Source: Pseudozobellia thermophila (lineage in GTDB: Bacteria; Bacteroidota; Bacteroidia; Flavobacteriales; Flavobacteriaceae). From it: a stretch of 64,000 nucleotides of DNA. The position numbers were made by a program, and so were the translations under genes. Below are positions 35,870-61,236 of this stretch, piece by piece (within the stretch, counting starts at the first letter, position 1; the number at the start of each line of letters is the position of its first letter). The stretch covers positions 95,402-159,401 of the forward strand of contig NZ_FQYU01000001.1 in assembly GCF_900141855.1 (NCBI RefSeq), in the 5' to 3' direction. The notes beneath the pieces are model-generated. The model was not told the DNA's origin and did no database searches. It worked only from the letters and a program-made list of their open reading frames with translations.

Positions 35870-35926
35870 AATGCAAAGATGGGAAATTAAAACTTTTTTT
35901 TTGAAGTATTTTGTTGATCTTTAGCC

Positions 35927-37570: not shown

Positions 37571-37578
37571 GCCTACAC

Positions 37579-38196: not shown

Positions 38197-38197
38197 A

Positions 38198-38581
38198 CTA
38201 ATCTTGGTTTGTGATCATGCCACAATTTAGGCATTTGTATTTTCTTTTCTCAAAAAACGGGAAAAGTTTATTCAAAAGTCCCTGTCGTTTATAATAAACC
38301 TCCGACTTTTGGGCCTTGCAATTGGGGCAAACAATCAGGTTGCCCTCATCGTCTATGGCATAGGCCCTAATTTCGTTGTAAACGGCCAGGGCGCGCTCCT
38401 TATCCTCGGTGTACACCTGCAATTTCACCCCGCCAATGGCATTGCTGATGAGCGGGTCGGAATTTAGGGTATGCTCATCCCTGAGAAAAACAGGAATGCC
38501 CTCGGACTCCAATTTTCCTTTCAGTATTTGAACGTCGGAAGGATATTCAAAGGAGGCAATGGTATAAAACTTCTCTTTCAT
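38198..38581 (-). CDS. DUF2007-like small protein between bioF and bioD
   Basis: Start taken at the internal Met MKEKFYTIASFEY; C-terminal Cys pairs CPNC...CLNC. Confidence 0.5.
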   Translation of the reverse strand: MKEKFYTIASFEYPSDVQILKGKLESEGIPVFLRDEHTLNSDPLISNAIGGVKLQVYTEDKERALAVYNEIRAYAIDDEGNLIVCPNCKAQKSEVYYKRQGLLNKLFPFFEKRKYKCLNCGMITNQD

Positions 38582-38582
38582 A

Positions 38583-39734: not shown

Positions 39735-39853
39735 AACCCAAATGTAGCATCTTTGAACGAATAGAAAAACCACGGCGGGCATCCGGATCAAGGTCCTTTC
39801 TATTCCTTGCCTTATTCTACCGTTTTTTTGACGAATATTATACCTTTAACCTA

Positions 39854-41689: not shown

Positions 41690-42222
41690 TACGCTATACC
41701 ACGGCATCGACCGATGACGAACTGAAGCAGATCCTCGCCCTTCAGGAAAGAAACCTGGCCTCTAAGGTGTCGTCCCTCGAAAAGGAAAAAGAAGGCTTTG
41801 TAACCGTAGCGCATACCTTCGACACCTTAAAGGCGATGAACGATACCTGCCCCCATATCATTGCTAAATCGGAGCATGCGGTCATCGGCTATACCCTCTG
41901 TATGCACCCTAGGTTTTCGGATGCCATCGAGGTCTTAAAACCCATGTTCGACGAGATCGAAGGCATTCTTCCCCCCGTGGAAAACTATATCGTTATGGGC
42001 CAGGTCTGCATCGACAAGGCCTTTCGCAAGCAGGGCGTTTTCAGAAAATTGTACGAAACCATGCAGGCCAAGACCAAAAGGGATTTCAGCAGTATTATCA
42101 CCGAGATCGACGCGGGCAACACCCGCTCTTTGCAAGCCCATTATGCTATCGGTTTTAAAGAACTGCACACCTATACATCGGGAGCCCGGGAGTGGAAAAT
42201 CGTGCGTTTTCGATACCTATAA
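41686..42222 (+). CDS. GNAT family N-acetyltransferase
   Basis: Acetyl-CoA-binding motif QGVFRKLYE; start overlaps the M61 stop (ATGA). Confidence 0.75.
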   Translation: MIRYTTASTDDELKQILALQERNLASKVSSLEKEKEGFVTVAHTFDTLKAMNDTCPHIIAKSEHAVIGYTLCMHPRFSDAIEVLKPMFDEIEGILPPVENYIVMGQVCIDKAFRKQGVFRKLYETMQAKTKRDFSSIITEIDAGNTRSLQAHYAIGFKELHTYTSGAREWKIVRFRYL

Positions 42223-42305
42223 AAAACCCGAACACTCCTACATGCAGCTTATTTGACCCGTCGTCCTTACCAATTCCATATTTTTGATTCACCAACTATA
42301 CGCAC

Positions 42306-42517
42306 CTGATTACAAACACAATAAGCCCTAGCCAAAAATCGTTGAAAACACAGTATTTCGTCGAAAAATTTGTAGTATTTTTCTTTGTTAAAAGTATATT
42401 TAACATGCTCTAGCATACAAATTATTGTATCGATTATTGGTTTTCCTTCTTATGTTTTGCACACCTGGTTTTTCCGATAGTATCCACTTTGATTAATTGG
42501 GCAAGGGGAAATGGCTC
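42306..42517 (+). repeat. Direct repeat copy A: a diverged duplicate of the promoter and first ~30 codons of the OMP gene at 48129, truncated by an in-frame TAA
   Basis: Collinear with 48011..48221 (TCGAAA(A/T)TTTGTAGTATTTTTC...CCTTCTTATGT.TTG.ACAC.TGGTTTTTCC...TTGGGCAAGG.GAAATGGCTC); similarity stops exactly after AAATGGCTC. Confidence 0.7.
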
Positions 42518-42587
42518 CCATATAAGCATGGTACTACCAACTACAACAATCAAAAATTCAAGCAACGAAAAAAAGGGAGGTCAAACA

Positions 42588-42695
42588 TTTGAATTAAGCG
42601 ATCGAAAATACAGCCGAGCAAGAAACTATGCGGAAGATCAAACGGTTCTCAAAAACGACAGTGAAGGTTTAACACCAGCATGGGCACAAACGTGA
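42588..42695 (+). pseudogene. C-terminal fragment of an IS200/IS605-family Y1 (RAYT-like) transposase
   Basis: ...YSRARNYAEDQTVLKNDSEGLTPAWAQT* parallels the C-terminus of the 43630..44038 copy (...YSSARNYAEDQTVLKIDSEGLT). Confidence 0.6.
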
Positions 42696-42720
42696 CACCG
42701 GCGCCAGCAGGTGATGGCTC
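42683..42720. repeat. REP-like element / IS200-like right-end motif, family member 1
   Basis: GCACAAACGTGACACCGGCGCCAGCAGGTGATGGCTC; nearly identical to 44882..44919 and related to 44068..44100. Confidence 0.6.
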
Positions 42721-42782
42721 AAATTTGAATCTAGATTTGTAGAAAACCTGTCCTACTAATTGGGGGATGAACACGCTTATGT

Positions 42783-43026
42783 TGGGGAGTTCAAAAAAAG
42801 GATTGACGCCAATACGGGAGAAGTATATAGTACAATGGAAAGTCGTTAGCTTTTAATCAATTTAGTTTGAACAATACTAAGCAAAAAATGAATTTAAAAT
42901 AATCTCTGATGCAGCTAAGAAGAATGGAGATTTGATTGATGGACAATTTAGAGGTGTTACAAAAGATGGTTTTGAAATAGAGGGTTATTTGAAAGATGGA
43001 AAAGTAGATACTTTTTACTTTTTATA
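42783..43026 (+). pseudogene. Degraded fragments of a MORN/YwqK-like repeat protein (immunity-protein-like)
   Basis: Short frames GEFKKRIDANTGEVYS...* and DAAKKNGDLIDGQFRGVTKDGFEIEGYLKDGKVDTFYFL* show the G-x-Y/F-x-x-G repeat signature of YwqK/MORN-type proteins. Confidence 0.3.
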
Positions 43027-43037
43027 GTTAGTTTTAA

Positions 43038-43469
43038 ATGAATTGGTTGATAGAAAATAAGCGGTTTGATATGACTGACCTAATGGTCACCATAGATTTT
43101 GAACCCAAGAACGATCCCTTAAGGTATTTTTTATCAAGTATCGGCGTATTTAACTACCCAAAATTTTTAGACTCTTTTAGTAGTTCTAAAAGTTACTACA
43201 CACATGTCTCATCTCTGAGATTTTACAAAGATTTGGATTGGGAAGATTTAGAAGAATTATCAGAGGTAGGAGGTATTAAAGAGGGTGAGATTACAATATC
43301 TCATGAAGTTTATGGAGAAACTGTTTTAAAAGAAGCAGTTTTTAAGGAATTGATTTTGGACTATTCTCAAGCGCTATTAGAAACCTATAAAAATGACTCC
43401 TCTGCTCCTAAATTATGGAGCAACGAAATGACTGATGAGATAACCAAATTGAAGAATAAGCCGAGTTAA
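43038..43469 (+). CDS. Hypothetical cytoplasmic protein (immunity-protein-like; no signal peptide; low GC)
   Basis: 143-aa ORF; no recognisable motif. Confidence 0.5.
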   Translation: MNWLIENKRFDMTDLMVTIDFEPKNDPLRYFLSSIGVFNYPKFLDSFSSSKSYYTHVSSLRFYKDLDWEDLEELSEVGGIKEGEITISHEVYGETVLKEAVFKELILDYSQALLETYKNDSSAPKLWSNEMTDEITKLKNKPS

Positions 43470-43549
43470 GTGTAACAGCTTGGCTTTTTACATCAAATTA
43501 ATTTTAGCAGCCTTGATAAAGTGGTCAATGGTAGTAATCAGAAACCCCG

Positions 43550-43576
43550 CCTGCACGAGCGTGACGCTCGTGCAGG
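43550..43576. repeat. 27-bp perfect palindrome (left-end hairpin of an IS200/IS605-like element)
   Basis: CCTGCACGAGCG-TGA-CGCTCGTGCAGG, about 55 bp upstream of the tnpA pseudogene. Confidence 0.7.
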
Positions 43577-43629
43577 TCAGAGTAAGAAGATCCTGAGCCA
43601 AGCACTAAACAATTAAAAGTAAGATAGTA

Positions 43630-44038
43630 ATGAGCAGAAAACACAAATTCAATAACCCTACCGCAGCCTACTTCGTAAGCTTCGCCACCGTATATTGGAT
43701 CGATGTGTTTACCAGACAGGCCTATTTCTCGATATTGGAAAATGCGGTCGGTTACTGTCGAGCGGAAAAAGGAATGGATATTACGGATGATGGAAAGCGC
43801 AGCCAAAAAGAAAAGGAATATAACCAAAAGGCAATTCTGGCAACATAACAACAAACCTATTGAGCTATGGAGTAACAAAGTCATAAAACAGAAGATCGAT
43901 TATATACACAACAACCCGGTAGAAGCAGGGTTCGTAACAAATGCCATTGATTGGAAATACAGCAGTGCAAGAAACTATGCGGAAGATCAAACAGTTCTCA
44001 AAATTGACAGTGAAGGTTTAACACTAGGTATGCTATGA
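43630..44038 (+). pseudogene. tnpA: IS200/IS605-family Y1 transposase (REP-associated tyrosine transposase-like), frameshifted
   Basis: N-terminal part MSRKHKFNNPTAAYFVSFATVYWIDVFTRQAYF (frame of 43630..43848) continues in another frame (43703..44038) as ...IDYIHNNPVEAGFVTNAIDWKYSSARNY; a Y1 transposase interrupted by a frameshift. Confidence 0.7.
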
Positions 44039-44067
44039 AAATGCGACCGCTTAATACTAGGTTGAAT

Positions 44068-44100
44068 GGGCATAAGCGTGACGCTTGTGCCAGCAGGGGA
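44068..44100. repeat. Right-end hairpin / REP-like motif, family member 2
   Basis: GGGCATAAGCGTGACGCTTGTGCCAGCAGGGGA, which contains the palindrome AAGCG-TGA-CGCTT. Confidence 0.55.
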
Positions 44101-44205
44101 GAGAAATCAACTATCCAGGAGGCGGGCATCAATATGAGTTTATAAACGATTGGAGTATTGATAATTTCACAGATTATTTAAACTTAATAGAAAAAAAATA
44201 ATCAA

Positions 44206-44754
44206 ATGAGAATAAAAAATCTATCCCTTATTTATCGGGATTTAATACATGAAGTAAATTTAGATTTAGGTTTATATATTGAATCCATTAATGTTAATAA
44301 AGTTGAGAGTAGTGTTCTAAGAAATTATAACCATGGTATTTCATGGAAGTATCAAACCGTAGAAAAAGATCTTTTGGAAATAAAATTGATGGAGAAAGAG
44401 AAAAGAATCTTGGCATATCCCTCCCCTGACATGAAATACATGGTCGTTTTGTTCGATAGAAACTCGCAATACCATCCACATCCGAACAACCTTGTGGTAT
44501 TTTACGCCAATGGGGAAGAAAAACAAGTGGTCAAGGTCCCAGAATTAATTTCAGATCAAGCCGTAAAAAACACCGATAACCCTTTTGGGGTAGATAAAGA
44601 AGGAAGTTTTGAAAATATTTGGTGGTATAAAAAAGAAAACGAAAAAAAGATGGTAGTAGATATCCATTTTGCATGGGAAAATACAGAAACAAGGGAGTTT
44701 GACCCCGAAACAGGGCAATTTGGCAATTTAATCAGAGTTTCCGGTAGATTTTAG
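44206..44754 (+). CDS. Hypothetical protein (182 aa; no signal peptide; low GC)
   Basis: ORF only. Confidence 0.5.
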   Translation: MRIKNLSLIYRDLIHEVNLDLGLYIESINVNKVESSVLRNYNHGISWKYQTVEKDLLEIKLMEKEKRILAYPSPDMKYMVVLFDRNSQYHPHPNNLVVFYANGEEKQVVKVPELISDQAVKNTDNPFGVDKEGSFENIWWYKKENEKKMVVDIHFAWENTETREFDPETGQFGNLIRVSGRF

Positions 44755-44881
44755 GACTTACTCCCGCTAGCGCGAACATTTGAACCAAGCTTGCCGAAGT
44801 ATCACGGCGGTACCCACTACAGCGATAATACCCAGTAGGCTATAAAAGCAAAACGAATATGGGTTTGCAACAAATTTTTAA

Positions 44882-44919
44882 CCGCACAAACGTGACACCG
44901 GCACTAGCAGATGATGCTC
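44882..44919. repeat. Solo REP-like motif, family member 3
   Basis: CCGCACAAACGTGACACCGGCACTAGCAGATGATGCTC, about 90% identical to 42683..42720. Confidence 0.55.
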
Positions 44920-44970
44920 ACAATTAAATCTTTATAAGGTGGATTTAAGTAAAATGGATTGGATTACTAA

Positions 44971-45477
44971 ATGGAAATATTGATACAAATGAACATTACC
45001 GCAAAAGAATTTAGGACGATTAAACCTTTCGAATCATACACGGAGAATGATGTACAAGGAGGATTGACAAAATCTGTATTGGATATCTATTTATATATAT
45101 ATGATAATTTCTCGGTAATGAACTTTGTCGCTGATTATAACAAACAAAATCCTTTAGAAGTATTTGGCAATACTCCAAAAGAAAAAAGACTAGTACAATT
45201 AAATAATTTAAATAAAAGTATAGAAAAAGGCAACGACCCGGTTTCGATTGGAAAGTATTCCTTATTGGATAACAACCTAATAGAAATGAAATGGAATTAC
45301 TATTACGGAGAAGATATTGAATTGATCTTTAAAGGGGAAATACTCTTAAACGGTGATGCCCTAAAAGGAACCTTCTATAAGAATGGGGAAGTCGACATAC
45401 CCTCTAGGGTTTACTACAACATCGACAAACCCTTGCCCGACCCTTTGATCCCGGAGGATGATGAAGATATGGCTTAA
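44971..45477 (+). CDS. Hypothetical protein (168 aa)
   Basis: ORF only. Confidence 0.5.
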   Translation: MEILIQMNITAKEFRTIKPFESYTENDVQGGLTKSVLDIYLYIYDNFSVMNFVADYNKQNPLEVFGNTPKEKRLVQLNNLNKSIEKGNDPVSIGKYSLLDNNLIEMKWNYYYGEDIELIFKGEILLNGDALKGTFYKNGEVDIPSRVYYNIDKPLPDPLIPEDDEDMA

Positions 45478-45685
45478 TAAAAGGAAAACAAAACACTATT
45501 CCCTGCAGGGGTTTAGTGCAGGAAAAAATGGCGTATTGGGTGCTCCCGAATGGCATTTGCCTAAAAACATTGAAATGGATAAGGGTGCAGAACTGTGGGA
45601 AATTTTAAACGATGAATCGGAAATCTTAAGAGGTCGGATAGTCGATATATATGATTCTAAAACCTTCATAACAATAATCAATTAA
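45458..45685 (+). CDS. Hypothetical small protein (75 aa)
   Basis: ORF overlapping the previous stop by 20 bp. Confidence 0.35.
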   Translation: MMKIWLNKRKTKHYSLQGFSAGKNGVLGAPEWHLPKNIEMDKGAELWEILNDESEILRGRIVDIYDSKTFITIIN

Positions 45686-45687
45686 AA

Positions 45688-46140
45688 ATGAAGTATAGAT
45701 TTGGCTCATATGTAGTTTACAAAGAAATGGATTGTTATTTAATCTCCAGAAAAGAATGGAGAATAGTATCCAAGGATATTAAGAGTCAAAAACTAGGGTT
45801 TAAAGCCTATGAGGCTGGTTTCCCTTATTATAAAAAAATCGATAAGACCGACATACAATCAGGTTATTTTGTTCGTACAAAAGCAAAATACAAAGATTTC
45901 ACCTTTGAATTATTTCAAAATGAGGCATTGAAAAATGATTATAAAGTACGATTAAAATTGAACAACCTTGACTTTGATGCCTACGATTATTTTGGGTTTC
46001 CTTACCGAAATGATGATGCCAGTATTGAAGTCAATGAGGAAGAATTGGAAGAAATTTGGGAAGAGCGCAAACCCCTAGCTCGGTTCCCGTTCAAAACAGA
46101 AAAAATAAAGTTTATAAAAAAAGAAGGGGAGTTTTTGTAA
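45688..46140 (+). CDS. Hypothetical protein (150 aa)
   Basis: ORF only. Confidence 0.5.
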   Translation: MKYRFGSYVVYKEMDCYLISRKEWRIVSKDIKSQKLGFKAYEAGFPYYKKIDKTDIQSGYFVRTKAKYKDFTFELFQNEALKNDYKVRLKLNNLDFDAYDYFGFPYRNDDASIEVNEEELEEIWEERKPLARFPFKTEKIKFIKKEGEFL

Positions 46141-46287
46141 TGTCCTCATCAAGGTTTTTCATATTTAATACTAGTATATCAACATTGCAACCCTGTACGT
46201 TTAAAATGTATGGCCCGAATTGGTCGTTAGTTCCAAAAAAATCAGCGCTAAGGAATACAAGGCTAAGAGCCTGTCTAAAATGGCCTT

Positions 46288-46554
46288 ATGACTAAAAACA
46301 TGAAATCCAAAAGAAACATAGAACCCATAATAACTTACTCTATTGCCATAATTTTAATCGGGTATCTTCTTCTGAATTACGGCTCGTTTCACATAGATGA
46401 AGACTACCCTTCATCATGGAAGGCACAATTGATACACATAGTCTCTAAATTTCTTTTAAATGATACAGCCGGGCGCATGGTAGGCCAAATAGTCCTTTCG
46501 CTATTGGGTATCGTTTGCTGCTTTAAAATTTACAAAGTCATAAAAGCTAAATAA
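46288..46554 (+). CDS. Small two-TM membrane protein, paralog 1
   Basis: IEPIITYSIAIILIGYLL...LSLLGIVCCFKIYKVIKAK; paralogous to the next ORF. Confidence 0.45.
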   Translation: MTKNMKSKRNIEPIITYSIAIILIGYLLLNYGSFHIDEDYPSSWKAQLIHIVSKFLLNDTAGRMVGQIVLSLLGIVCCFKIYKVIKAK

Positions 46555-46564
46555 TTGCCTAGGC

Positions 46565-46816
46565 ATGAGACCGAAAAGAGATATAGAACCGATCATAGCT
46601 TACTCTATAGCAATAATGTTAATAGTGTATTTGCTTGCCAGCTATGACACCTTTTCCGTTGATGAAAACCGCCCTCCTCATGGAAAATGGATTGTTGTTA
46701 TATATAAGTTTCTTTTAAATCATGAGTTTGGCAGTATTATCGCCAAAGGAGTCCTATTGTTGTTGGGCATCTATTGTTGCCGTCAACTATACAACGCTTT
46801 TAAAACTAAACAATAG
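46565..46816 (+). CDS. Small two-TM membrane protein, paralog 2
   Basis: IEPIIAYSIAIMLIVYLL...LLLLGIYCCRQLYNAFKTKQ. Confidence 0.45.
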   Translation: MRPKRDIEPIIAYSIAIMLIVYLLASYDTFSVDENRPPHGKWIVVIYKFLLNHEFGSIIAKGVLLLLGIYCCRQLYNAFKTKQ

Positions 46817-46951
46817 TCTGATATGGTGTTCCCATAATAACCAGAGAGGCTCCTGATTTTTGAGATAATTTAGGAGGAGCTATGTAGTAGTCCCTTCCAA
46901 TGGGATGAAATTAGAATCATTTAATATGGTAAGATTTAAAAAGTAATTTTT

Positions 46952-47206
46952 ATGAACTGGCATAACGCATTAAAAGATATATATCGAAAACTTGAAGCTT
47001 CTGGATATAAAGGAATCAAGGAGGATATTCATGAAGGTCAATTGAGTGGTGGAACTGGTGGGGAATTTTTTTCAATAGTTCTAACTAAATTAATAGAAAT
47101 CAAAAAAAATCAACCCATTGTCTATTGCTTGCTAAAAAAAGAAGTAGATGAATTTATTGCTTATGCTAAATCAATTAATTACTTGAACTCTGATTTTAAG
47201 ATTTAA
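46952..47206 (+). CDS. Hypothetical small protein (84 aa)
   Basis: ORF only. Confidence 0.4.
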   Translation: MNWHNALKDIYRKLEASGYKGIKEDIHEGQLSGGTGGEFFSIVLTKLIEIKKNQPIVYCLLKKEVDEFIAYAKSINYLNSDFKI

Positions 47207-47329
47207 TTTTTATGAAAGAGTGCATCCCTGCGGTGAAAAATTAGCAATAGGAAAAATTGGCCTTCGGCAGCGCAGGCGTCACAGCTAAAACACTGTCCCC
47301 GCTTGTGATTAATACTTTTAATAATATCA

Positions 47330-47731
47330 ATGGGCTATCTAAAAGACTATAATAGAAATAAAGACGAAATTCTTCATTCTTTTCAAGACTTAATCGAAAA
47401 GGAAGATGATTCATTTTCAGAACTTGGGTTTAATTTTTCAAAATGTGGGTTTGGTGATGCAAGAAGTCAAGACGACCATATAGAATTTATCTGGAAAAAA
47501 GAAAAAAGAGAACTCAGTGTTTGCTTTTGGATCCCTTTTTGGAAGAACTACAAAATTGACGAGAACTTTATGGTAACCTATAGTCTAACTAATGATATGG
47601 GTAAAAAGCATCCATTAATTTCTAAGGCTATTGAATTCAATAAATTACGCGGGGAAAATATTAGAGCCAAGATAAGCACACTATTCAAACATATTGCGGA
47701 AATCATCAATTCAAAAAATATAAATTTATAA
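47330..47731 (+). CDS. Hypothetical protein (133 aa)
   Basis: ORF only. Confidence 0.5.
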   Translation: MGYLKDYNRNKDEILHSFQDLIEKEDDSFSELGFNFSKCGFGDARSQDDHIEFIWKKEKRELSVCFWIPFWKNYKIDENFMVTYSLTNDMGKKHPLISKAIEFNKLRGENIRAKISTLFKHIAEIINSKNINL

Positions 47732-47736
47732 TAGTT

Positions 47737-47811
47737 CCCTCACGCTCGTGCCCGCAACAGACAATACCCCCCACTTCGGCAGGCTCGGCGCAAGGCTTCG
47801 AAGGGCGGGGA
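47737..47811. repeat. Hairpin-rich repeat element, copy 1
   Basis: TCACGCTCGTGCC (half of the IS200-like LE palindrome) followed by CCCCCCACTTCGGCAGGCTCGGCGCAAGGCTTCGAAGGGCGGGG; the same roughly 45-bp imperfect hairpin recurs at 56043..56089. Confidence 0.6.
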
Positions 47812-48010
47812 ATGTTCCCGGCCTTAGGGCCAGTTCGCAGGTATGCATTTGGAATTGTCTTCGGTACTGGCCACACGGTCAAGCAAGTCGGCCCGGGAGT
47901 GAAAACCACGCGTATTAAATACTTACAACAAAATAAAACTTCCTACACAAATATTAATTTTCTTGTAGTCCTTACAACGCCAATATTCACAATATATAAC
48001 ACGTACTTCA

Positions 48011-48221
48011 CTCATTACAAACACAATAACTTCATTTAAAAAAATCTAAGATTCATTACATTTCATCGAAATTTTTGTAGTATTTTTCGCTTTTTAACTT
48101 AAATTTAACTAGTTAAGAATACGAATCATTGTACCGATTATTAGTTCCCCTTCTTATGTGTTGTACACTTGGTTTTTCCCAAAGTATCAACTTTGACCAA
48201 TTGGGCAAGGAGAAATGGCTC
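48011..48221 (+). repeat. Direct repeat copy B: the functional promoter and 5' end of the OMP gene
   Basis: See copy A at 42306..42517. Confidence 0.7.
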
Positions 48222-50588
48222 AGATACAACGGCGGTGTGTCGGCCAATGCCGTCTATTACGACGGTACCGCCAACCGACAGGAGCTCACCTATTACCTCA
48301 CCGGAAGCTTAAACTTCAACATTGCCGGGGTGTACAACGTTCCGCTATCGTTTACCTATTCGAACCAAGAGTTCAATTTTCCCAACCCCTTTAACTTTAA
48401 TCGCTTGAGCCTGCATCCATCCTACAAATGGGCTACCGCACATATCGGCGACGTAAGCATGACCTTTTCGCCCTACACCCTCGCCGGTCACCAATTTACG
48501 GGCGGCGGTTTTGACCTGAATCCGGAAGGGAAATTTCAAATAAGCGCCATGTACGGCCACTTTTTAAAGGCCACCGAATACAACGAGGAACACCCCGAGG
48601 CCCTTACCGCCTACAAACGCATGGGCTATGGCATAAAGACCGCCTATGATTTCGATTTTATGAAACTGGGACTCATTCTCTTTAAGGCCCATGACGAAGA
48701 GAACTCATTGGAAAATCCGTTTCCCGTGGAGCTCGGACTCTCACCCAAAGACAATGCCGTGCTCTCCTTCGAATCGGAATTCCGGCTTTTCGAAAAGGCC
48801 AGTATACACATAGAATACGCCATATCGGGCGTTACCGAGGACACGAGGCCGACCGAAGCCCCTTCGTCTCCCGGGCTGCTGTCCTTCCTTCTAAAAGAAA
48901 ACATAAGCACCCAATACTACAAGGCCCTGAACGCATCGTTAGACTACCCCGCGGGCAACGGAACCTTGGGACTAGGGTATGAACGCATCGACCCCGAGTA
49001 CAAGACCCTGGGTGCCTATTATTTCAACAACGACCTCGAAAACATCACGGTAAACGCGAGCCAGTCGGTTTTCGACAACAAACTCAACCTCAGCGTAAAC
49101 GCCGGCCTGCAGCGCGATAACCTGAACAAGGCCAAATCATCGGACCAACAGCGCATCGTAAGTGCCATCAACGCCAATTACACGGCCTCCGACCGTTTGG
49201 GCTTCAATGCATCCTACAGCAACTTTCAGTCCTACACCAACATTCGCGACCAGTTCGATTACATCAACCAAGTAGGGGCCTACGACAATATAGACACGCT
49301 GAACTATCGCCAGATTTCACAAAATGCCAACTTGGGCATCAACTACATCCTCAAAAAAACAGAGACCAAACAGCACAGCACCAACCTTAACCTGGTCTAT
49401 CAAAACAGCACCAACCAACAGGAAGGCGAAACCATAGAAGGCGGGGAAAACTCCTTCTACAACGGTATGGCGGGCTATACCCTGGGCTACCCCAAACAGG
49501 CCCTCAACATCTCCTTGGCCGCCAACGTTTCGTACAATACCGTGGCCGAGGACGACAACATGACCCTTGGCCCCACCCTATCCATCGGCAAGCAGTTTTT
49601 CGACAAGCAACTGCGCACCAACTTTTCAAGTTCGTACAATACGAGCTACGCCAACGGGGAACAGCAGAACAACATCCTTAACTTTAGGTTGGGCAGTAAC
49701 TATACGCTGTACAAAAAACACAACCTCAGCCTTAATTTTCTGATGCTTTTCAGGAATTCGGAACTCAATACGGGGCGCGACCTGACCATTACCTTCGGCT
49801 ACAGCTATGCCTTTGACAACTTTAAGCTCGACCTTGATTCCCATAGGCGCAGTCCCAACGAACGCGACCCCCGCAACAGGGAAAGCACGTTGAGCTTCCG
49901 CTACCGCAATGTATCGTACAGCGGCACGATACCCCAACTGAACGAGCAGCTGACCAACGTGTACGAGAGTCCGCAGTTCGCCGACATCCCCCAATTCAAG
50001 AAAGACGAGCTCAAAATCCTTTTGGCCACCGTCAAAGAGCAAAAGCGGGAGGAAAAATACAAGGAGCAGGCCCTTATTTTTCTTGAGGAGCTCTACGCCT
50101 TCGACGATTTTAAAACCATTTACGACGAGGCCCTGTACAACGTGGTCATGGCCATCAAAGACGACATGAAGAAAGTGGACATGGCCCTGGAAAAACTCTT
50201 CGTCGCCAAAAAACTGGAAGCCGACGAGCACCCCCTGAACGGAAAGGGTCCCGAAAACTATACGGAAAAGGACAAAACCCTGGTGCCGGAGTACGAAGCC
50301 CTCCTAAAAGAGCGGGAGACCCGTTTGCGAAAATTGGTAGGACATAGGTGGATGGAAACCCAGTTCGCCGCCTTTACCTCCAAGGAAAAGATAGCGAAAG
50401 GAATAGGCTTTTTACTGGAGTTCAAGAAAAAACAGGCCCTAAAATCCTTTGAGCTTTATGAAAAAACCGAAAACCAGGAAAAACTGGAATACTACCTCGA
50501 AAACGAAATCATCGATTTCTACTATAAGAAGTCGCTGAAAACGGTAAACCCCGAACTGTTCGAACTGAGGTATATCAATAAATTGTAG
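48129..50588 (+). CDS. Large outer-membrane beta-barrel-like protein (~570 aa, aromatic/Asn/Ser/Thr/Tyr-rich) with a ~230-aa C-terminal helical Lys/Glu-rich domain; unknown family
   Basis: TTG start with signal peptide (M)YRLLVPLLMCCTLGFSQS; alternating beta-strand character with frequent aromatic-Asn/Ser residues; C-terminal ...KEQKREEKYKEQALIFLEELYAFDDFKTIYDEALYNVVMAIKDDMKK is helical. Confidence 0.7.
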   Translation: MYRLLVPLLMCCTLGFSQSINFDQLGKEKWLRYNGGVSANAVYYDGTANRQELTYYLTGSLNFNIAGVYNVPLSFTYSNQEFNFPNPFNFNRLSLHPSYKWATAHIGDVSMTFSPYTLAGHQFTGGGFDLNPEGKFQISAMYGHFLKATEYNEEHPEALTAYKRMGYGIKTAYDFDFMKLGLILFKAHDEENSLENPFPVELGLSPKDNAVLSFESEFRLFEKASIHIEYAISGVTEDTRPTEAPSSPGLLSFLLKENISTQYYKALNASLDYPAGNGTLGLGYERIDPEYKTLGAYYFNNDLENITVNASQSVFDNKLNLSVNAGLQRDNLNKAKSSDQQRIVSAINANYTASDRLGFNASYSNFQSYTNIRDQFDYINQVGAYDNIDTLNYRQISQNANLGINYILKKTETKQHSTNLNLVYQNSTNQQEGETIEGGENSFYNGMAGYTLGYPKQALNISLAANVSYNTVAEDDNMTLGPTLSIGKQFFDKQLRTNFSSSYNTSYANGEQQNNILNFRLGSNYTLYKKHNLSLNFLMLFRNSELNTGRDLTITFGYSYAFDNFKLDLDSHRRSPNERDPRNRESTLSFRYRNVSYSGTIPQLNEQLTNVYESPQFADIPQFKKDELKILLATVKEQKREEKYKEQALIFLEELYAFDDFKTIYDEALYNVVMAIKDDMKKVDMALEKLFVAKKLEADEHPLNGKGPENYTEKDKTLVPEYEALLKERETRLRKLVGHRWMETQFAAFTSKEKIAKGIGFLLEFKKKQALKSFELYEKTENQEKLEYYLENEIIDFYYKKSLKTVNPELFELRYINKL

Positions 50589-50836
50589 ACAATGAACAAT
50601 TAGCAATTAGCAATAAACAATGAGCAATGAACAGTTAACAGTAGGCAGTGGGCAGTGGGCAGTGAACAGTTAGCAATTAGCAATTAGCAATGAACAATTA
50701 ACAGTGAACAGTTGGCAGTGGGCAGTGGACAATTGACAATTAACAGTGAACAGTTAGCAATGAGCAATGAACAGTAGGCAGTTGGCTGTGGGCAGTGGGC
50801 AGTGAACAGTTGGCAGTGGGCAGTTGGCAGCTATTA
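50589..50836. repeat. Tract of about 35 tandem degenerate heptanucleotide repeats (unit RCARTKR, e.g. GCAGTGG / GCAATTA / ACAGTGA)
   Basis: acaatga acaatta gcaatta gcaataa acaatga gcaatga acagtta acagtag gcagtgg gcagtgg gcagtga ... gcagttg gcagcta; starts on the base after the OMP stop codon and runs into the 5' end of the next long ORF. Confidence 0.9.
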
Positions 50837-50869
50837 GTTCTAAGAAAATTAAAAAATATCGGACCGTTG

Positions 50870-53800
50870 ATGACCAACAGCGTTATAAAACATATGAAAA
50901 ACAACGATTTAGCATTGCAGCATCCCTTTACAAACCCGGTAAATGGCCGTGGCGCATGGCGCAAGACCTTCGGTAAGGGTCAGGCTGTGCTTTTATACAT
51001 GCTTCTTTTCTTCCTATGCTTCCTGGGTAGCCTCGCGGTAAACGCCCAGTCCTTTCCCGTTCAGGTGATTCCTCAGGTAACCCCGCCGGCGCCGATCTAT
51101 TTCTCCGATTATGCCGATGCGAGTACCTTGGGCAGTCCGCTCCGCGTGCAGATCATCTTGAACGATTTTGAGATCGCCAACCGCGAGATACGCCTGCGTA
51201 CCTATTTTGAGGGCGGGGGTATCAGCTTTCATAGTAACGATGTGGTGCTAGGTGCCGAAAAACTCTATTTGGAAGGCGGCGTGCCCTTGGTACTCACCAA
51301 CGTACAATTGGCCCCGTACTTTAGGTTCGAGAACATTAGCGGAATATCGCCCAACGTATACGGAAAAGCCATTCCCGAAGGCGCCTACTCCTTTTGTTTT
51401 GAGGTGTACGATGTACTGACGGGCAACCGCCTGTCGCAAAAAAGCTGTGCCACCAGCGTTGTCTTTCAAAACGAACCGCCCTTTCTGGTCGCACCGAGAA
51501 ACAAGTCCAACCTAGCCGAAACCAATCCGCAGAACATCGTCTTCCAATGGACGCCACGCCACATCAACGTGAGCAATGTGGAATACGAACTGAGCATCGT
51601 GGAGATCTGGGATACCCAGGTAGACCCGCAACAGGCCTTTTTAAGCTCTCCGCCCGTTTTTCAGGTCACGACCACCGCCACCACCTACGTATACGGTCCG
51701 GCCGACCCGCTTTTTCTTTCGGGAAAAAACTACGCCTGGCGCGTACAGGCCAAGGCCAAGCAAGGGGTCGAGGAAATCGGACTCTTCAAAAACCAGGGCT
51801 ATAGTGAAATCTATTCCTTCAGCTATGCCGGCACCTGCGACCTGCCCATCGGTATCAACCACGAAGTAAAGGGCAGTACCAATGCCAATATCTTTTGGGA
51901 CGATTTCGCTACCGATGTGCCCGAATATACGGTGCGGTACCGCCAAAAGAACATAGAGGGAGCGGAGTGGTTTATGAACAAGACCACTTCGAACCAAACC
52001 ACCCTGTGGGACCTTAAGGCAGGCACCACCTACGAATACCAGGTGCAAAAACAATGCTCGGTGACCGGAAGCGATTGGAGCATGGCCAAGGAGTTTACCA
52101 CCTTTATCGCCGACGACGAAGCCAGTGTCTACGACTGTGGCATAACGCCCGATTTTGATGTTTCGAACAAAGAGCCCCTGCCCAGCATCTCCTCCGGTGA
52201 AAAGTTTATGGCGGGCGACTTCCCCATAAATATTTTAAAGGTAAGCGGTAAAAATGGCCGTTTTACGGGTAAAGGATACGTGACCATCCCTTATTTGAAC
52301 AGCATTCGAGTGGGCGTAGAGTTTACCAATGTGCTTATCAATACCGACAAGAAATTGGCCGAAGGTACCGTAGTCACCACCTACGACCCGAGTTTAAAGA
52401 ACATCTTGGACATAAACGAATCAGTCGATACGGTAGAAGATGCCGTTGATGCCGTGGGGGAATTTTTTGAAGGAGATAACGACCTAGATGAAATTCGCGT
52501 CAACTGGGCCCTTAGATCTAAGAAAGATATAAAAATAAAAGGTGGTAAAGTCGTGATCACCAACCCCAATACGGGGGCAACCAAATCGGAACCCTTAGGC
52601 GACGATATGGTGATTACCGACAGTGAAGGGAAAACCTATTACGTAGATGCGGAAGGAAAAATAACCGAAGGGGGATCACTTGCTACTGGCGGGGCCATAA
52701 GCCCGGATACCGTAGAAGGCGTCTCGAACAACGGCCAAATAGAATCCTTAACGGCAGAAGGTGTTCTGGTCACCTTTAACGAAGCGGGTACGTATGCCAT
52801 GGATATAATGCCCAAGGGCGAAATAGGAAAGCTCAAGGACGAGTACACAGTTATAAAGGATGCGGAAGGCAACGACTATGTGCTTACCCACCATGCCGTA
52901 AAGAATAGGGCAAGCACCAAAATAAAGGCCAAAATCGACATTAAAAACGATGCCTACGATGTATCGGATGTCATCTTCAAGACCAAGCATGGGGATAGTA
53001 TCCCCACGACCTTCAAGGGCAATCAGGCCACCTTGACCTTGAAAGGCAGGTTTACCTTCGAAAACGAGGTAATCTATGCGGTCGTACCCGACAAGGACGA
53101 CAGTACAAAACAACTTACGGCCGGGGCGTTTACCCTTTGGCATCTATCCGAACGCACCGTAAAAGTGGCCCTGGTTTCCGTTAACGGCGCCTCTTTGGGT
53201 AATATCGAATCCAACGTTTCCGACATCTTCAAAAAAGCGGTGGCCCGTATTGAGTTCGGCGAGAGCCTTTCCCTTTCCGTCACCAAGGACGAACTAGGAA
53301 GCAACCAAAAATTGGATGTAGGCGAAAGCGCATGGGCCGCGGCCTATAACGAGGAACAGAAGATGCTCGTAAACAAGGTGAAGCAATTGCCCAACTATAA
53401 GACCGACACCTATTATGTCTTGGTCTTCAACGACATAGAACCTTCAGAATCCATCGGTGGATTTATGCCCCTACAGCGGCAAATGGGCTTTGTATTTGGC
53501 GGTGACCCAGATGATGGTGAAGATAAGAACGGGGACAAGAGCAAGACCTTGGCCCACGAAATAGGCCATGGTATTTTCGCCCTTCAGCACCCCTTCGCTG
53601 AATATGACATGCCTGAAAATCAAACCGATTGGCTCATGGATTATGGCAGTGGAGACCAATTGCCCCATACCCATTGGGCCCAGATCCATGACCCGGCCCT
53701 TAAATTCTACATTTTTCAAGATGAGGAGGATGGTTTATTAATACAAAACGGAATCACTCCATATCTTAACATTCATGAAAAAAATTGGGATAATTATTGT

Positions 53801-55912
53801 TTTTTGTCTCCTATTGGTACTGCAATAGATATACCGGGTGCCACCCATGTAATGTTTAATGAAGATGGGGCCGTAATTGCTTTTAAAATAGGTAATGAAA
53901 AATTTTTAGGGCTTTATAACCCGGCCAAGCAGCGTTTTATAGGATATCTCAACTCTACTTCAAAACTGATTACAAAAGAAATGAGTCTCACAGAAGACTT
54001 TAGAAAAAAATTCAATGAAGAAAAATTCACCAATATCAAATTTGCTGAAAAATCCAAAGATATTGTCGCAATTGCTAAAAAAAAGCATAAATCAAGATAT
54101 TTGGATTGTATCTATCAAGTGATATGGGAAAATTCAACAATAGGAAGTAGCTATACTGGTATATCAACCCCGCCCTTTATTCCAAATGACGGTACCATAG
54201 AGAATTTTATTTCTGGCAATCAATGTGCAAATGCTACAAGTGATGGAATAATCGATGGCCCAGGTGATGTAGTTTATTTTAAACTATTTGAGTTTGTTGA
54301 CAATGAAGAAAGAATAAAATTGATAGAGTTTTCAAATTACTTATCCGATTTATTAAAAAATAAAACCTTCGCGTTCTACGGATATGGTTTAGAAAATTAT
54401 GAAATATCCAATTCGATTAACAAAGAAGTTTTAAATTATTTAACAAACAATAAGATTTATTCCAAGGAAAAATTTGAAGAACATTTTCCCATTCAAACAT
54501 TCTCACGTGACAAAGACATAATATTTTCCACAATTGATTTAAGAAAAACAATACCAAAGGATTATAATTCGAAGGAAAGTATAGATTATGAAATACTCAA
54601 TGCGACAGGGGAAAAGCGTCCATATGAATATTCTTTCTCTGATTTGACAGTTCGACTTCAATATTTAGCCGACGACACTTTTATTAAAACGGCCATTCAT
54701 AAAATGGAAGCCGAAGGTAGAGCTGAGCCAATTTCTCAAAAAGACGGATACAACCAATACGTAGCTAAGTATGGTACTGATGCCGCGTTTATTCTATGGG
54801 CAGAATTTGCTTCCAATGCTAGCAAAGATGTTATGTCCGCTTATTTTATCCATAGAGTCACTGCTGAATATGGTGTTGCCCTCTTACAAGAAATTTCAAA
54901 AGAAGCGGCAGAAAAATTCATATGGGGAGTACTAGAGGAATCTATTCCGAATTACCTTGCAAACGAATTACTTGACGAAGATCAATTTAGTAAAGACTTC
55001 TTTCAAGATGCATTGTTAGCAGGTGTCAAAAATACAATTAGCCCCACAGGTAGAAAATTTACGGATGTTGCAATTGAGAAAGGATATGATTGTCTCATTG
55101 GACTTGATATATCAACAATTGATGGTCTTTTATTTTCAAAGTCAAAAGAAGAATTGGAAAAATACTTACTGTATGGGTCATTTGAATGTGTTTTTCCAAT
55201 GATTGCTCCCAAACTGTTTGATTATGTACTCAAAGGTAACCCGGTCGCAAAAAAAGTACACAAATATTTGACAACAAAGCTAAATATTGACCATAGTCAG
55301 ACCCCTGATTTAATGATTAAAATGTTGGGGATGGAAAAAAACTTAAAGGGGAAAAGCGAACATTATAGAAGTGTTTTAAAAGAAATCATTACTACAGAAT
55401 CTGGCGCCCAAGCAATTGATGTTTTAATTAAAGCAAATTTTGACTATACCACGTTATCGGTCTCCAATTTAAGAAGACTAAAAAATGTCGTAGAAAAATG
55501 GGGAAACAGTAATGAAATGGTGGAATTATTCAAAAGCACAACCGATGTAAACAGAATGCTGATTTACATGGAAAAAATGGTGAAATCACCACAAGAATAC
55601 AAAGAGCTATTAAAAAAAATAGGCGAAAATGAGATGTTTTCAAAAACAATAACGATAAATGGAAAAACAGTGAATATAGAAACCTATTTCAATAGTTTTC
55701 ATGACGGGTATACCTATTATCACAAACAAGAGAATAACATACATTACTATGCGAAAATGAACGGGGCCGACGGTTTGCGTATCATAATAGACCTAACCAA
55801 TAGTGCTATTCCTGTGATAAAAAATATATCGTATGGCACAGCAGCTAACGTTCTGAAAGATTTCATATCAAATTCGATAGAATATAAGTTGGACATTTCA
55901 GATGATAACTAG
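50870..55912 (+). CDS. Giant secreted multidomain protein (about 1680 aa): FN3-like domains, a central zincin-like HEIGH metallopeptidase module, and a low-GC C-terminal third of unknown function
   Basis: The ORF is open from 50795, but its first 25 codons are the heptamer repeat. Candidate starts are M at 50870, 50894 or 50999, all before the signal-like segment LLYMLLFFLCFLGSLAVNAQS. FN3-like blocks (e.g. ...IVFQWTPRH...YAWRVQAKA..., ...TVRYRQKN...YEYQVQKQ). LAHEIGHGIFALQHPF at 53555..53569. GC drops from about 50% to about 28% near 53700. Confidence 0.8.
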   Translation: MTNSVIKHMKNNDLALQHPFTNPVNGRGAWRKTFGKGQAVLLYMLLFFLCFLGSLAVNAQSFPVQVIPQVTPPAPIYFSDYADASTLGSPLRVQIILNDFEIANREIRLRTYFEGGGISFHSNDVVLGAEKLYLEGGVPLVLTNVQLAPYFRFENISGISPNVYGKAIPEGAYSFCFEVYDVLTGNRLSQKSCATSVVFQNEPPFLVAPRNKSNLAETNPQNIVFQWTPRHINVSNVEYELSIVEIWDTQVDPQQAFLSSPPVFQVTTTATTYVYGPADPLFLSGKNYAWRVQAKAKQGVEEIGLFKNQGYSEIYSFSYAGTCDLPIGINHEVKGSTNANIFWDDFATDVPEYTVRYRQKNIEGAEWFMNKTTSNQTTLWDLKAGTTYEYQVQKQCSVTGSDWSMAKEFTTFIADDEASVYDCGITPDFDVSNKEPLPSISSGEKFMAGDFPINILKVSGKNGRFTGKGYVTIPYLNSIRVGVEFTNVLINTDKKLAEGTVVTTYDPSLKNILDINESVDTVEDAVDAVGEFFEGDNDLDEIRVNWALRSKKDIKIKGGKVVITNPNTGATKSEPLGDDMVITDSEGKTYYVDAEGKITEGGSLATGGAISPDTVEGVSNNGQIESLTAEGVLVTFNEAGTYAMDIMPKGEIGKLKDEYTVIKDAEGNDYVLTHHAVKNRASTKIKAKIDIKNDAYDVSDVIFKTKHGDSIPTTFKGNQATLTLKGRFTFENEVIYAVVPDKDDSTKQLTAGAFTLWHLSERTVKVALVSVNGASLGNIESNVSDIFKKAVARIEFGESLSLSVTKDELGSNQKLDVGESAWAAAYNEEQKMLVNKVKQLPNYKTDTYYVLVFNDIEPSESIGGFMPLQRQMGFVFGGDPDDGEDKNGDKSKTLAHEIGHGIFALQHPFAEYDMPENQTDWLMDYGSGDQLPHTHWAQIHDPALKFYIFQDEEDGLLIQNGITPYLNIHEKNWDNYCFLSPIGTAIDIPGATHVMFNEDGAVIAFKIGNEKFLGLYNPAKQRFIGYLNSTSKLITKEMSLTEDFRKKFNEEKFTNIKFAEKSKDIVAIAKKKHKSRYLDCIYQVIWENSTIGSSYTGISTPPFIPNDGTIENFISGNQCANATSDGIIDGPGDVVYFKLFEFVDNEERIKLIEFSNYLSDLLKNKTFAFYGYGLENYEISNSINKEVLNYLTNNKIYSKEKFEEHFPIQTFSRDKDIIFSTIDLRKTIPKDYNSKESIDYEILNATGEKRPYEYSFSDLTVRLQYLADDTFIKTAIHKMEAEGRAEPISQKDGYNQYVAKYGTDAAFILWAEFASNASKDVMSAYFIHRVTAEYGVALLQEISKEAAEKFIWGVLEESIPNYLANELLDEDQFSKDFFQDALLAGVKNTISPTGRKFTDVAIEKGYDCLIGLDISTIDGLLFSKSKEELEKYLLYGSFECVFPMIAPKLFDYVLKGNPVAKKVHKYLTTKLNIDHSQTPDLMIKMLGMEKNLKGKSEHYRSVLKEIITTESGAQAIDVLIKANFDYTTLSVSNLRRLKNVVEKWGNSNEMVELFKSTTDVNRMLIYMEKMVKSPQEYKELLKKIGENEMFSKTITINGKTVNIETYFNSFHDGYTYYHKQENNIHYYAKMNGADGLRIIIDLTNSAIPVIKNISYGTAANVLKDFISNSIEYKLDISDDN

Positions 55913-55960
55913 CGAAACATATAAACATATAATTAATGGCGTGCGGAACACCCCTCTAGC

Positions 55961-56089
55961 GCAAGCATCACGCTCGTACCATGTTCAAAACACCCCTGTA
56001 AAGTAGTAGGGTACTACTTTACCGTCCCCCCAAGGGGACAATAACCCCTACTTCGGCAGGCTCGGCGCAAGGCTTCGAAGGGCGGGGGA
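55961..56089. repeat. Hairpin-rich repeat element, copy 2 (longer; nested palindromes)
   Basis: TCACGCTCGTACC ... GTAAAGTAGTA-GGG-TACTACTTTAC (11-bp arms) ... GTCCCC-CCCAA-GGGGAC ... CCCCTACTTCGGCAGGCTCGGCGCAAGGCTTCGAAGGGCGGGGG; the 3' part is nearly identical to 47767..47811. Confidence 0.6.
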
Positions 56090-56222
56090 TGTAGGATCGA
56101 ACCGATGCAGATAGAAGGGAAAAATAGAAAGGTGAATAAAACAAAAAGAAGAAAAAATAAAAAATGATTGAGTCTCCCTTAGTTCCCTGGGGAGTACATA
56201 AACACGAAAAATTTCACGTAGT

Positions 56223-61235: not shown

Positions 61236-61236
61236 T

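Follow-up and report, generated by a model that had tools for sequence, protein, structure and literature searches.

Orphan cdiA-CT/cdiI and rhs-CT/rhsI modules sit downstream of the toxin genes of contact-dependent growth inhibition (CDI) and Rhs systems. In these systems displaced toxin-tip/immunity pairs gather beside an active polymorphic toxin gene, and orphan immunity genes can protect against the toxins of other strains, as in an Rhs example (PMC10539506). Polyimmunity loci (Zhang, de Souza, Anantharaman, Iyer and Aravind, 2012, Biol Direct 7:18; PMC3482391) consist of structurally unrelated immunity genes set in tandem and in one direction; they vary between close strains, are thought to pre-empt the toxins of non-kin and often lie beside a recombination gene. 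The recombinase-associated acquired interbacterial defence (rAID-1) clusters of gut Bacteroidales (Ross et al., 2019; bioRxiv 10.1101/471110) hold orphan immunity genes that all point one way, at low GC, with intergenic repeats and strain-variable content; homologues of these genes are cognate immunity genes elsewhere. Here we describe an array with these features in Pseudozobellia thermophila, lying in a 64,000-nt stretch of contig NZ_FQYU01000001.1 (positions 95,402 to 159,401 of the forward strand), referred to below as the window. Most likely this is an orphan-immunity (polyimmunity) island that adjoins a polymorphic-toxin locus found in marine Flavobacteriaceae.

The island is a variant of the known orphan-immunity arrays, with a REP-associated tyrosine transposase (RAYT) and its repetitive extragenic palindromes (REPs) in place of a XerC/D-type recombinase. 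Unlike polyimmunity loci, which have XerC/D, it carries a transposase of the HUH/Y1 kind; its open reading frames (ORFs) fall outside the catalogued Imm families, each unit has a toxin remnant, and the array is joined to a toxin locus. It differs from rAID-1 in having RAYT REP hairpins as its repeats, a marine Flavobacteriaceae host and toxins that are surface or secreted proteins of the type here called G1 and not type VI secretion system (T6SS) effectors, and in being known from sequence alone. rAID-1 clusters are defined by a 5' XerD-like recombinase with more than 44% identity to BF9343_RS08045 and by at least two co-directional genes of GC 41% or less with repetitive intergenic sequences. 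The island has nine plus-strand ORFs of GC 0.29-0.36 with a REP family between the cassettes, and Pfam annotation gave no XerD-like recombinase in the island, the genes upstream of it or the syntenic islands, BF9343_RS08045 itself not being part of the comparison. Compared with the CDI and Rhs modules, the toxin remnants are short (19-60 codons) and lack an upstream homology block, so they could not be recombined back into G1; moreover, the units are bounded by REPs and the main array lies upstream of its locus, behind a duplicated promoter and 5' gene fragment.

Candidate immunity genes follow toxin gene remnants

The island occupies 5.9 kb (window 42.2-48.1 kb) and has a GC content of 0.355 (0.33-0.39 along its length), the flanks and the genome standing at about 0.48. 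It is bounded on the left by a GNAT gene, which lies there together with an M61 peptidase gene, and on the right by a gene for an 819-aa protein, OMP819. A first-pass annotation made from the sequence alone had proposed an orphan-immunity island here, with at least nine short, low-GC and motif-free ORFs of 75-182 aa; nine were confirmed at the stated coordinates, and none had a match in Pfam, NCBIfam or PHROGs, so that no phage or housekeeping family was found among them. The same annotation had stated that none has a signal peptide, which agrees with the absence of a hydrophobic N-terminus from seven of the nine; the other two are the pair of paralogous two-transmembrane (two-TM) proteins, o88 and o83, that it had also recognized. 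Neither an Rfam scan nor a tRNA scan of the island found anything.

Four of the ORFs (o143, o182, o168 and o150) have homologues in the cognate position next to toxin genes elsewhere and, in the island, a toxin remnant directly upstream that comprises the last 19-60 codons of such a gene. Judged by these homologies, the island holds at least four units composed of a REP, a toxin 3' stub and an intact putative immunity gene. In what follows, L numbers denote the loci and contigs compared.

The frame preceding o143 ends in AKKNGDLIDGQFRGVTKDGFEIEGYLKDGKVDTFYFL and a stop codon, almost identical to the AKKNGGLIDGPFRGVTKDGFEIEGYLRNGKVDTFYFL that ends the gene upstream of metagenomic o143 homologues. 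These homologues (51-78% identity) always lie 3-4 nt after that EndoU-like gene, and o143 has a dN/dS of 0.14. Positions 42783-43026 had been annotated as fragments of a MORN/YwqK-like repeat protein; no Pfam match was obtained there at E values up to 1, and 42881-43027 is instead the stub of the EndoU-like toxin gene. Ahead of o182, the translation REINYPGGGHQYEFINDWSIDNFTDYLNLIEKK, followed by a stop, could be aligned by eye to the last residues of the 246-aa protein that partners o182-like genes in L075 and to a 50-aa stub in L073. Homologues of o182 overlap the stop codon of the Tne2-like gene, and the fold predicted for o182 is that of Tni2, an immunity protein of solved structure. In contrast to the Tne2-Tni2 pair of the Pseudomonas protegens T6SS (PDB 6B12), the partner toxin here is not a T6SS effector and is reduced to 33 codons in the window, and o182 and Tni2 are only 11% identical.

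The stub preceding o168 ends in LNLYKVDLSKMDWITKWKY and a stop, matching the C-terminal ends of the G1 proteins of L002, L016, L032 and L066, all of C-terminal cluster 2 (see below). In all four of these genomes an o168 homologue (55-73% identity) directly follows G1, at gaps of -32 to +4 nt, and the stub overlaps the start of o168 by 13 nt in the window, as it does in L002. A cluster-2 G1 is carried, for example, by Z. uliginosa DSM 2061. The G1 of the window itself falls in cluster 10, and o168 is therefore an orphan here; its dN/dS is 0.23-0.25. The ORF o75, listed in the first-pass annotation as an independent small gene, proved to be the 3' remnant of a G1-type toxin gene: a phmmer search against 1.84e9 representative proteins placed its matches at the extreme C-termini of larger proteins, the best large match, P0030 (1686 aa), aligning over residues 1625-1684 at 65% identity. 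P0030 is a G1 orthologue (72% identity over the N-terminal 927 residues) whose end contains GSPEWHLPNNIEMEEGAELWEIFNDGSEILRGRII, and a 149-aa ORF 74% identical to o150 starts 2 nt after it (L198/L199). Because o75 matches the end of P0030 and the o150 homologue follows P0030, we take o75 as the toxin stub and o150 as its partner. L004 (Pseudozobellia sp. WGM2) and L014 have further o150 homologues in the slot between G1 and G2, as does L002 in its island, and the dN/dS of o150 is 0.14-0.39. Among the remaining ORFs, o133 (dN/dS 0.32) is 96% identical to the last island ORF of Zobellia sp. OII3 (L076), and o84 had no homologue in any fetched locus.

Proteins of the island would bind and block the cognate toxin domains injected by neighbouring strains, and a cell without those toxins would thereby be protected; protection is what we infer from the arrangement of the genes. 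Most orphan-immunity arrays known so far come from gut Bacteroidales, with a few from proteobacteria; the present one would extend them to marine Flavobacteriaceae and supply four toxin/immunity pairs for testing.

The adjoining locus encodes a putative polymorphic toxin

OMP819 (a working label given from the sequence pattern only) is the first gene of the locus to which the island is attached. The scan for its orthologues, at one genome per species, covered Flavobacteriaceae including Zobellia, Euzebyella, Maribacter, Arenibacter, Sediminicola, Flagellimonas and Aquimarina, and OMP819 itself had no Pfam or NCBIfam match. The ORF maps of these loci show a constant order of OMP819, the giant protein G1 (741-2147 aa), a slot of variable content with between one and six small ORFs, and G2, likewise a giant protein. 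In the window (48129-63300), as in L002-L066, the 819-aa gene, G1, the slot and G2 (1670 aa) are followed by a 687-aa fn3 protein; no family match other than fn3 was found for the proteins encoded in 48129-63300, and the locus, present in more than 60 Flavobacteriaceae species, is apparently undescribed as a class.

The array had been noted to lie immediately upstream of giant secreted proteins with mosaic C-termini, and comparison of G1 orthologues bears this out. Conservation of G1 is limited to 50820-52464 in the comparison with L001 and to aa 26-1061 in that with L002, and the last 300 residues of 52 orthologues fall into 29 clusters. Each C-terminal cluster pairs with its own ORF family, starting -32 to +9 nt from the G1 stop: cluster 2 with o168 (4/4), cluster 7 with F32 (2/2), cluster 8 with F49 (2/2) and cluster 0 with F22, F15 and F18. 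At their extreme C-termini, G1 orthologues of several clusters carry Pfam toxin domains, namely ART (2.4e-15), Endonuclea_NS_2 (1.6e-17), Toxin-deaminase (1.1e-38), the CdiA-CT RNase A domain RNAse_A_bac (6.3e-11) and Tox-SHH (2.6e-9); EndoU-type C-termini are also among the variants. Supplement 3 of Jana, Salomon and Bosis (2020; PMC7073777) gives a BaCT DNase for L038, the locus of Maribacter polysiphoniae, and their table annotates its G1 orthologue with FN3 only. With such C-terminal toxin domains and such co-variation with the next ORF, G1 and the downstream ORF behave as a toxin/immunity pair, and the sequences support G1 as a polymorphic toxin and the downstream ORF as its matching immunity protein. 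The conserved N-terminal part of G1, which looks like a signal peptide by eye at its very start and has no Pfam or NCBIfam match apart from fn3, presumably serves export and delivery, and the last ~300 residues would be the exchangeable toxin domain.

G1 resembles the TANFOR toxins described by the same authors, which are likewise large Bacteroidetes Fn3 proteins with polymorphic C-terminal toxins and immunity genes following them, and differs in its two companions, the conserved 819-aa gene and the giant protein G2. Membership of G1 in the TANFOR family was not supported, as no NCBIfam match was found even at E 10, with the library's inclusion of the N-terminal TANFOR domain TIGR02542 unconfirmed. 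Just ahead of the point at which the orthologues diverge, G1 carries the conserved HExxH motif LAHEIGHGIFALQHPF (window ~53558-53605, aa ~922-937), and this putative zincin-type peptidase may release the toxin domain.

In window 54782-56222 the resident G1 ends in the low-GC cluster-10 C-terminus, after which there is no ORF and a 311-nt gap that holds a REP. A PDB sequence search with this C-terminus gave no match, and its AlphaFold2 model, built from two sequences, was poor (pLDDT 53.8) and was kept out of the fold search. Its sole distant homologue is P0027 (L077), which is followed by a multi-TM protein. The only locus that shares its C-terminal type is L045, in which two 86-aa two-TM ORFs, paired upstream of OMP819, match o88/o83 with an hhalign probability of 86%, a weak value for short TM proteins, and an o88/o83 homologue lies 12 nt after a short G1 in L037. 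These findings are suggestive, though not decisive, of o88 and o83 being candidate immunity genes for the resident G1 toxin.

Island content varies between relatives and the ORFs appear to be under purifying selection

In a Zobellia amurskyensis, a Z. barbeyronii and a Maribacter genome (L048, L056 and L010) the site is empty, the gap between GNAT and OMP819 being ~215 nt. The left and right junctions of the window recur in L001 and L002, both assemblies labelled 'Z. uliginosa', and in L076 (Zobellia sp. OII3). Between the junctions these islands vary both in the genes that they hold and in the order of those genes, the largest having 18 ORFs (L076). The cross-strain survey called for in the first-pass annotation thus showed ORF content varying between conserved flanks, with three empty sites and three differing cassette sets. 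The island families o168, o150, F22, F32, F42 and F62 are the same families as those in the G1-G2 slots elsewhere. Values of dN/dS for the island ORFs range from 0.14 to 0.39, orphan-versus-cognate comparisons included, which indicates purifying selection. Between the window and L001, dS is 0.42 for OMP819 (48129-50588) and 0.05-0.07 for the M61 and GNAT genes left of the island (39854-42222), and this jump across the island implies that the toxin locus has its own recombination history and is exchanged independently of the left flank.

Taken with the partner homologues, the toxin stubs and the co-varying G1 C-termini, these comparisons uphold the proposal of an orphan-immunity island at a polymorphic-toxin locus. 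The toxin parts in the island are all destroyed, and eight candidate immunity genes are intact and apparently under purifying selection.

RAYT remnants and REPs mark the cassette edges

The array had been described as interspersed with one frameshifted and one truncated Y1 gene, labelled IS200/IS605 and RAYT-like. Both are present, and they are of the RAYT type, not IS200. Intact relatives of 190 and 198 aa match the RAYT model NF047646 (REP_Tyr_transpos) at 82.6 and 99.7 bits (cutoff 80) and also match Pfam Y1_Tnp; against the IS200 model NF033573 they reach 29 and 20 bits (cutoff 55). Nine intact RAYT copies are flanked by inverted REPs of ~30 nt (CCCCGCTAGCGCGAGCGTCACGCTCGTGCC ... GGCACGAGCGTGACGCTCGCGCTAGCGGGG), and the window REPs at 43553 and 44070 flank a RAYT remnant in the same inverted orientation. 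The IS200/IS605 identity was rejected on these grounds, the model score being below its cutoff and the flanking hairpins inverted rather than direct, and by the measure of their intact relatives the Y1 remnants are RAYTs with the REPtron layout. In blastx comparisons with intact 190-aa RAYTs the frameshifted copy matches aa 1-51 (69-88% identity) and then aa 97-188 (67-75%), and the truncated copy is 90-93% identical to its counterpart segment, 43949-44027. REPtrons (Bertels et al., 2017; PMC5581495) resemble the present elements, whose intact relatives score above the NF047646 cutoff, in having two inverted ~30-nt REPs; the window copies differ in being pseudogenes with REPs that coincide with the edges of toxin/immunity cassettes, and L003 and L004 have two RAYT copies each, 1.4-2.2 kb apart, against the usual single copy.

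At least five hairpins had been reported; of the five listed, those at 43553 and 44070 do fold, those at 42684 and 44884 are degenerate, non-folding copies of the same REP, and that at 47737 is half a REP. The REP at 42684 keeps the register of the REP that follows intact RAYTs, and that at 44069 has both its position and its orientation. After o182, ctcccgctagcgcgaac (44763-44777) is the 5' half of the L-type REP CCCCGCTAGCGCGAGCG, and L001 has an L-type REP at the equivalent place. Homology blocks between genomes begin at REPs, the block common to the window and L001 starting exactly at 44884. Three cassettes in the window have an R-type REP on their left side: for o182 and o168 it directly adjoins the stub, and for o143 it lies ~165 nt upstream of the EndoU stub. 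In L004 an R-type REP abuts an o75-type stub. The array reads as tandem units of REP-L, RAYT and REP-R, then stub, then immunity gene, with the RAYTs in varying states of decay.

The REP core motif occurs far beyond chance, with 0 matches expected in shuffles. Its three matches in the 64-kb window are all in the two slots, and across 1.27 Mb of related loci 32 of 32 matches lie in small-ORF slots (P about 5e-7). A lone L-type REP precedes G2 in six other loci, and at least 11 genomes of several genera have intact RAYTs with inverted REPs in the slot between G1 and G2. A second RAYT subfamily (198-199 aa, starting MKEGYII) is also found in this slot, sometimes beside the first. Matches to the REP core in many high-GC metagenome contigs look like unrelated palindromes and were set aside.

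A flanking direct repeat points to a possible origin in the G1-G2 slot

The island is bracketed by a direct repeat of ~220-290 bp, a feature that goes beyond the first-pass annotation: 42306-42525 and 48011-48229 are about 82% identical, and weaker similarity reaches back to ~42237/47940. The repeat comprises the promoter region and the first ~35 codons of OMP819, and by blastx the left copy matches residues 1-38 of OMP819 orthologues. Empty-site genomes are closer to the right copy (84-85% identity) than to the left (75-77%). At the right end of the island, TCACGCTCGTGCCCGCAACA matches the 3' half of the L-type REP and its flank in L004. It is followed by a GC-rich 56-nt element containing ACTTCGGCAGGCTCGGCGCAAGGCTTCGAAGGGCGGGG that recurs upstream of G2 (47760-47815 versus 56037-56092, 94.6% identity), and the pairing of this element with an L-type REP at the island end and upstream of G2 was found in four genomes, including L001, L002 and L076.

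By appearance, then, the island would be a translocated G1-G2 slot. An old tandem duplication running from the OMP819 promoter through G1 to the slot could have been followed by a deletion from about codon 35 of OMP819 into the slot, a sequence of events that would explain both the ~290-bp direct repeat and a right end like the upstream region of G2. Cassettes would later have been gained, lost and reordered at REPs, either by ordinary REP-REP recombination or by RAYT action. We also considered that the flanking repeats stem from a circle with an OMP819 5' fragment that entered by Campbell-type integration; duplication plus deletion is preferred, since the right end of the island resembles the region upstream of G2. 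The duplicated promoter region presumably drives transcription of the array. The ~55 nt that directly precede the OMP819 start recur a third time within the island of Zobellia sp. OII3 (L076 2878-2933; 89% identical to 42353-42408), and this further copy could be a reused promoter.

Alternative explanations

Several results count against the orphan-immunity reading. No island protein matched the curated Imm or SUKH families, and no toxin partner was identified for o88, o83, o84 and o133. The toxin assignments are weak in two cases, the o143-partner gene (L068) matching EndoU_bacteria at E 1.1e-4 and 23.1 bits, below the curated cutoff of 25.3, and the 246-aa partner of the o182-like gene having Tne2 (6b12_A) as its best PDB sequence match at E 0.015; for the cluster-2 G1 C-terminus there was no Pfam or PDB match. 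A profile search with o182 did not recover Tni2, so that this link rests on the predicted fold. The copies of the flanking repeat share only ~82% identity, and hence the proposed duplication must be old, or one copy was later replaced. Both RAYT copies in the window are dead, one having lost its HUH region and the other being a tail only, and in metagenome contigs the same RAYT/REP family lies beside housekeeping genes (MFS, RNase III, aminotransferase), so that its link with immunity capture may be incidental.

These last two points bear equally on an active HUH-driven system, in which the RAYT would cut and join single-stranded DNA at REP hairpins and so capture or move stub-plus-immunity cassettes in the manner of an integron, with a Y1 enzyme standing in for the tyrosine recombinase. 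The REPs set against or near toxin stubs in three window cassettes and in L004, the tandem layout of the array, the intact RAYTs with inverted REPs in the G1-G2 slots and the restriction of REPs to such slots within the 1.27 Mb all speak for it, and we found no paper that links RAYTs to immunity cassettes. To be set against these are the inactivity of both window copies, the occurrence of the family beside unrelated genes, the lack by eye of a conserved target sequence at the junctions, and the view given in Bertels et al. (2017) that RAYTs are domesticated, single-copy and non-mobile; homologous recombination between REP copies would, moreover, leave the same pattern. We consider such a system unlikely, and hold it equally doubtful that RAYT and REPs are the working recombination machinery of this widespread toxin locus, placing new toxin-tip/immunity modules in G1 and moving the old immunity genes to arrays. 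The HUH/Y1 elements are indeed there and coincide with cassette edges; an active role for them in building the array is possible, if unproven. As RAYT function is debated, the REP edges that abut toxin stubs provide a test case for RAYT-mediated cassette exchange, which, if true, would constitute a single-strand HUH analogue of the integron for genes of interbacterial warfare.

The array might also be a passive graveyard, that is, non-protective and decaying debris of toxin-immunity modules displaced by new G1 C-termini, like the orphan cdiA-CT/cdiI or rhs modules. Such decay would fit the reduction of every toxin part to 19-60 codons, the deleted or frameshifted RAYT copies, the degenerate REPs, and the loss or alteration of cassette content between close relatives. 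It does not fit the state of the partner genes, as 8/8 candidate immunity ORFs are intact while the toxins are all destroyed, nor the dN/dS values, which hold for orphan-versus-cognate comparisons as well; related islands reach 18 ORFs, and comparable orphan arrays do protect in Bacteroidales (10.1101/471110) and Serratia (PMC10539506). We therefore regard a mere graveyard as quite improbable. A phage or integrative-element remnant, or a toxin-antitoxin (TA) or anti-phage defence island unrelated to interbacterial toxins, would fit the low GC, the small unannotated ORFs, the transposase remnants and the flanking direct repeats, which are generic island features. It is nonetheless hardly credible: in a comparison that did not include PADLOC there were no PHROGs matches and no tRNA, the precomputed Pfam annotation lists neither integrase nor phage genes for the syntenic islands and their flanks, and the stubs and their partners match secreted polymorphic toxins and not type II TA toxins.

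Coordinates and further observations

Table 1. Features of the orphan-immunity island and adjoining locus. Positions refer to the window unless a locus is named; aa ranges refer to the corresponding intact protein.
Feature	Coordinates	Strand	Basis
Left direct-repeat copy: OMP819 upstream region and pseudo 5' end (~35 codons, in-frame TAA)	42237..42535	+	~80-83% identical to 47940-48235
RAYT (Y1) C-terminal remnant, aa ~160-183 (24-codon tail)	42600..42678	+	blastx against intact RAYTs
Degenerate R-type REP, left edge of cassette 1	42684..42716	+	DNA fold z -0.4, non-folding
3' remnant of EndoU-like toxin gene (~48 codons)	42881..43027	+	near match to gene preceding o143 homologue, L068
o143, candidate immunity gene for EndoU-like toxin	43038..43469	+	homologue position
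REP hairpin upstream of RAYT remnant (core 43553-43573)	43541..43582	+	12-bp stem, -16.4 kcal/mol, z -6.98
RAYT pseudogene, frameshift and deletion of aa ~52-96 including HUH motif	43630..44038	+	blastx
R-type REP downstream of RAYT remnant, left edge of cassette 2	44069..44102	+	10-bp stem, z -2.9
3' remnant (33 codons) of Tne2-like NADase toxin gene	44100..44201	+	alignment by eye
o182, putative Tni2-like immunity gene	44206..44754	+	
Half L-type REP after o182	44763..44777	+	read from sequence
Degenerate R-type REP, left edge of cassette 3	44884..44916	+	91% identical to 42684-42716; non-folding
3' remnant (~19-22 codons) of G1 toxin gene, C-terminal cluster 2	44915..44983	+	match to G1 ends
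o168, immunity-type partner of cluster-2 G1 toxins, orphan here	44971..45477	+	homologue position
o75, 3' remnant of G1-type toxin read as ORF (homology aa 14-75)	45458..45685	+	phmmer
o150, immunity-type partner of o75-type G1 toxin	45688..46140	+	homologue position
o88 and o83, paralogous two-TM proteins	46288..46554, 46565..46816	+	50% aa, 72% nt identity
o84	46952..47206	+	no family match
o133	47330..47731	+	no family match
Half L-type REP (47737-47759) and 56-nt element also upstream of G2	47737..47815	+	sequence comparison
Right direct-repeat copy: OMP819 upstream region and gene start	47940..48235	+	
OMP819, conserved first gene of toxin locus	48129..50588	+	orthologues in 65 Flavobacteriaceae loci
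G1, putative polymorphic toxin: conserved N-terminal part, fn3, HExxH near aa 922-937, variable low-GC C-terminus	50795..55912	+	
L-type REP in G1-G2 gap	55959..55979	+	
Second RAYT subfamily members	L012 19219-19815; L037 18216-18812; L044 19532-20131; L053 17721-18317		

Modules of the o182 type were also seen away from the toxin locus. In Pseudozobellia sp. WGM2 (L073 7849-8561) a lone Tne2-like stub with an o182-like gene lies far from that locus, flanked by a uracil-DNA glycosylase gene and a MutS-domain-V gene, and single orphan modules are thus also scattered in the genome. In a metagenome contig (L074, 1-5500) an o182-like gene stands within a small-ORF array that includes two NADAR-domain proteins and may be another immunity array, against NAD- or ADP-ribose-directed toxins.

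The genus labels of the genomes compared look inconsistent: window 35010-42678 shows ~94% DNA identity between Pseudozobellia thermophila and Zobellia uliginosa-labelled assemblies (L001), and Pseudozobellia sp. WGM2 is much more distant, at 83% aa identity in the 819-aa protein. Two further low-GC patches (0.32-0.33) that may be foreign DNA lie elsewhere in the window. The first (30032-31141, minus strand) holds a 369-aa ORF with no PDB sequence match, and the second (63303-64000) holds an ORF that follows the 687-aa protein and runs past the window end.

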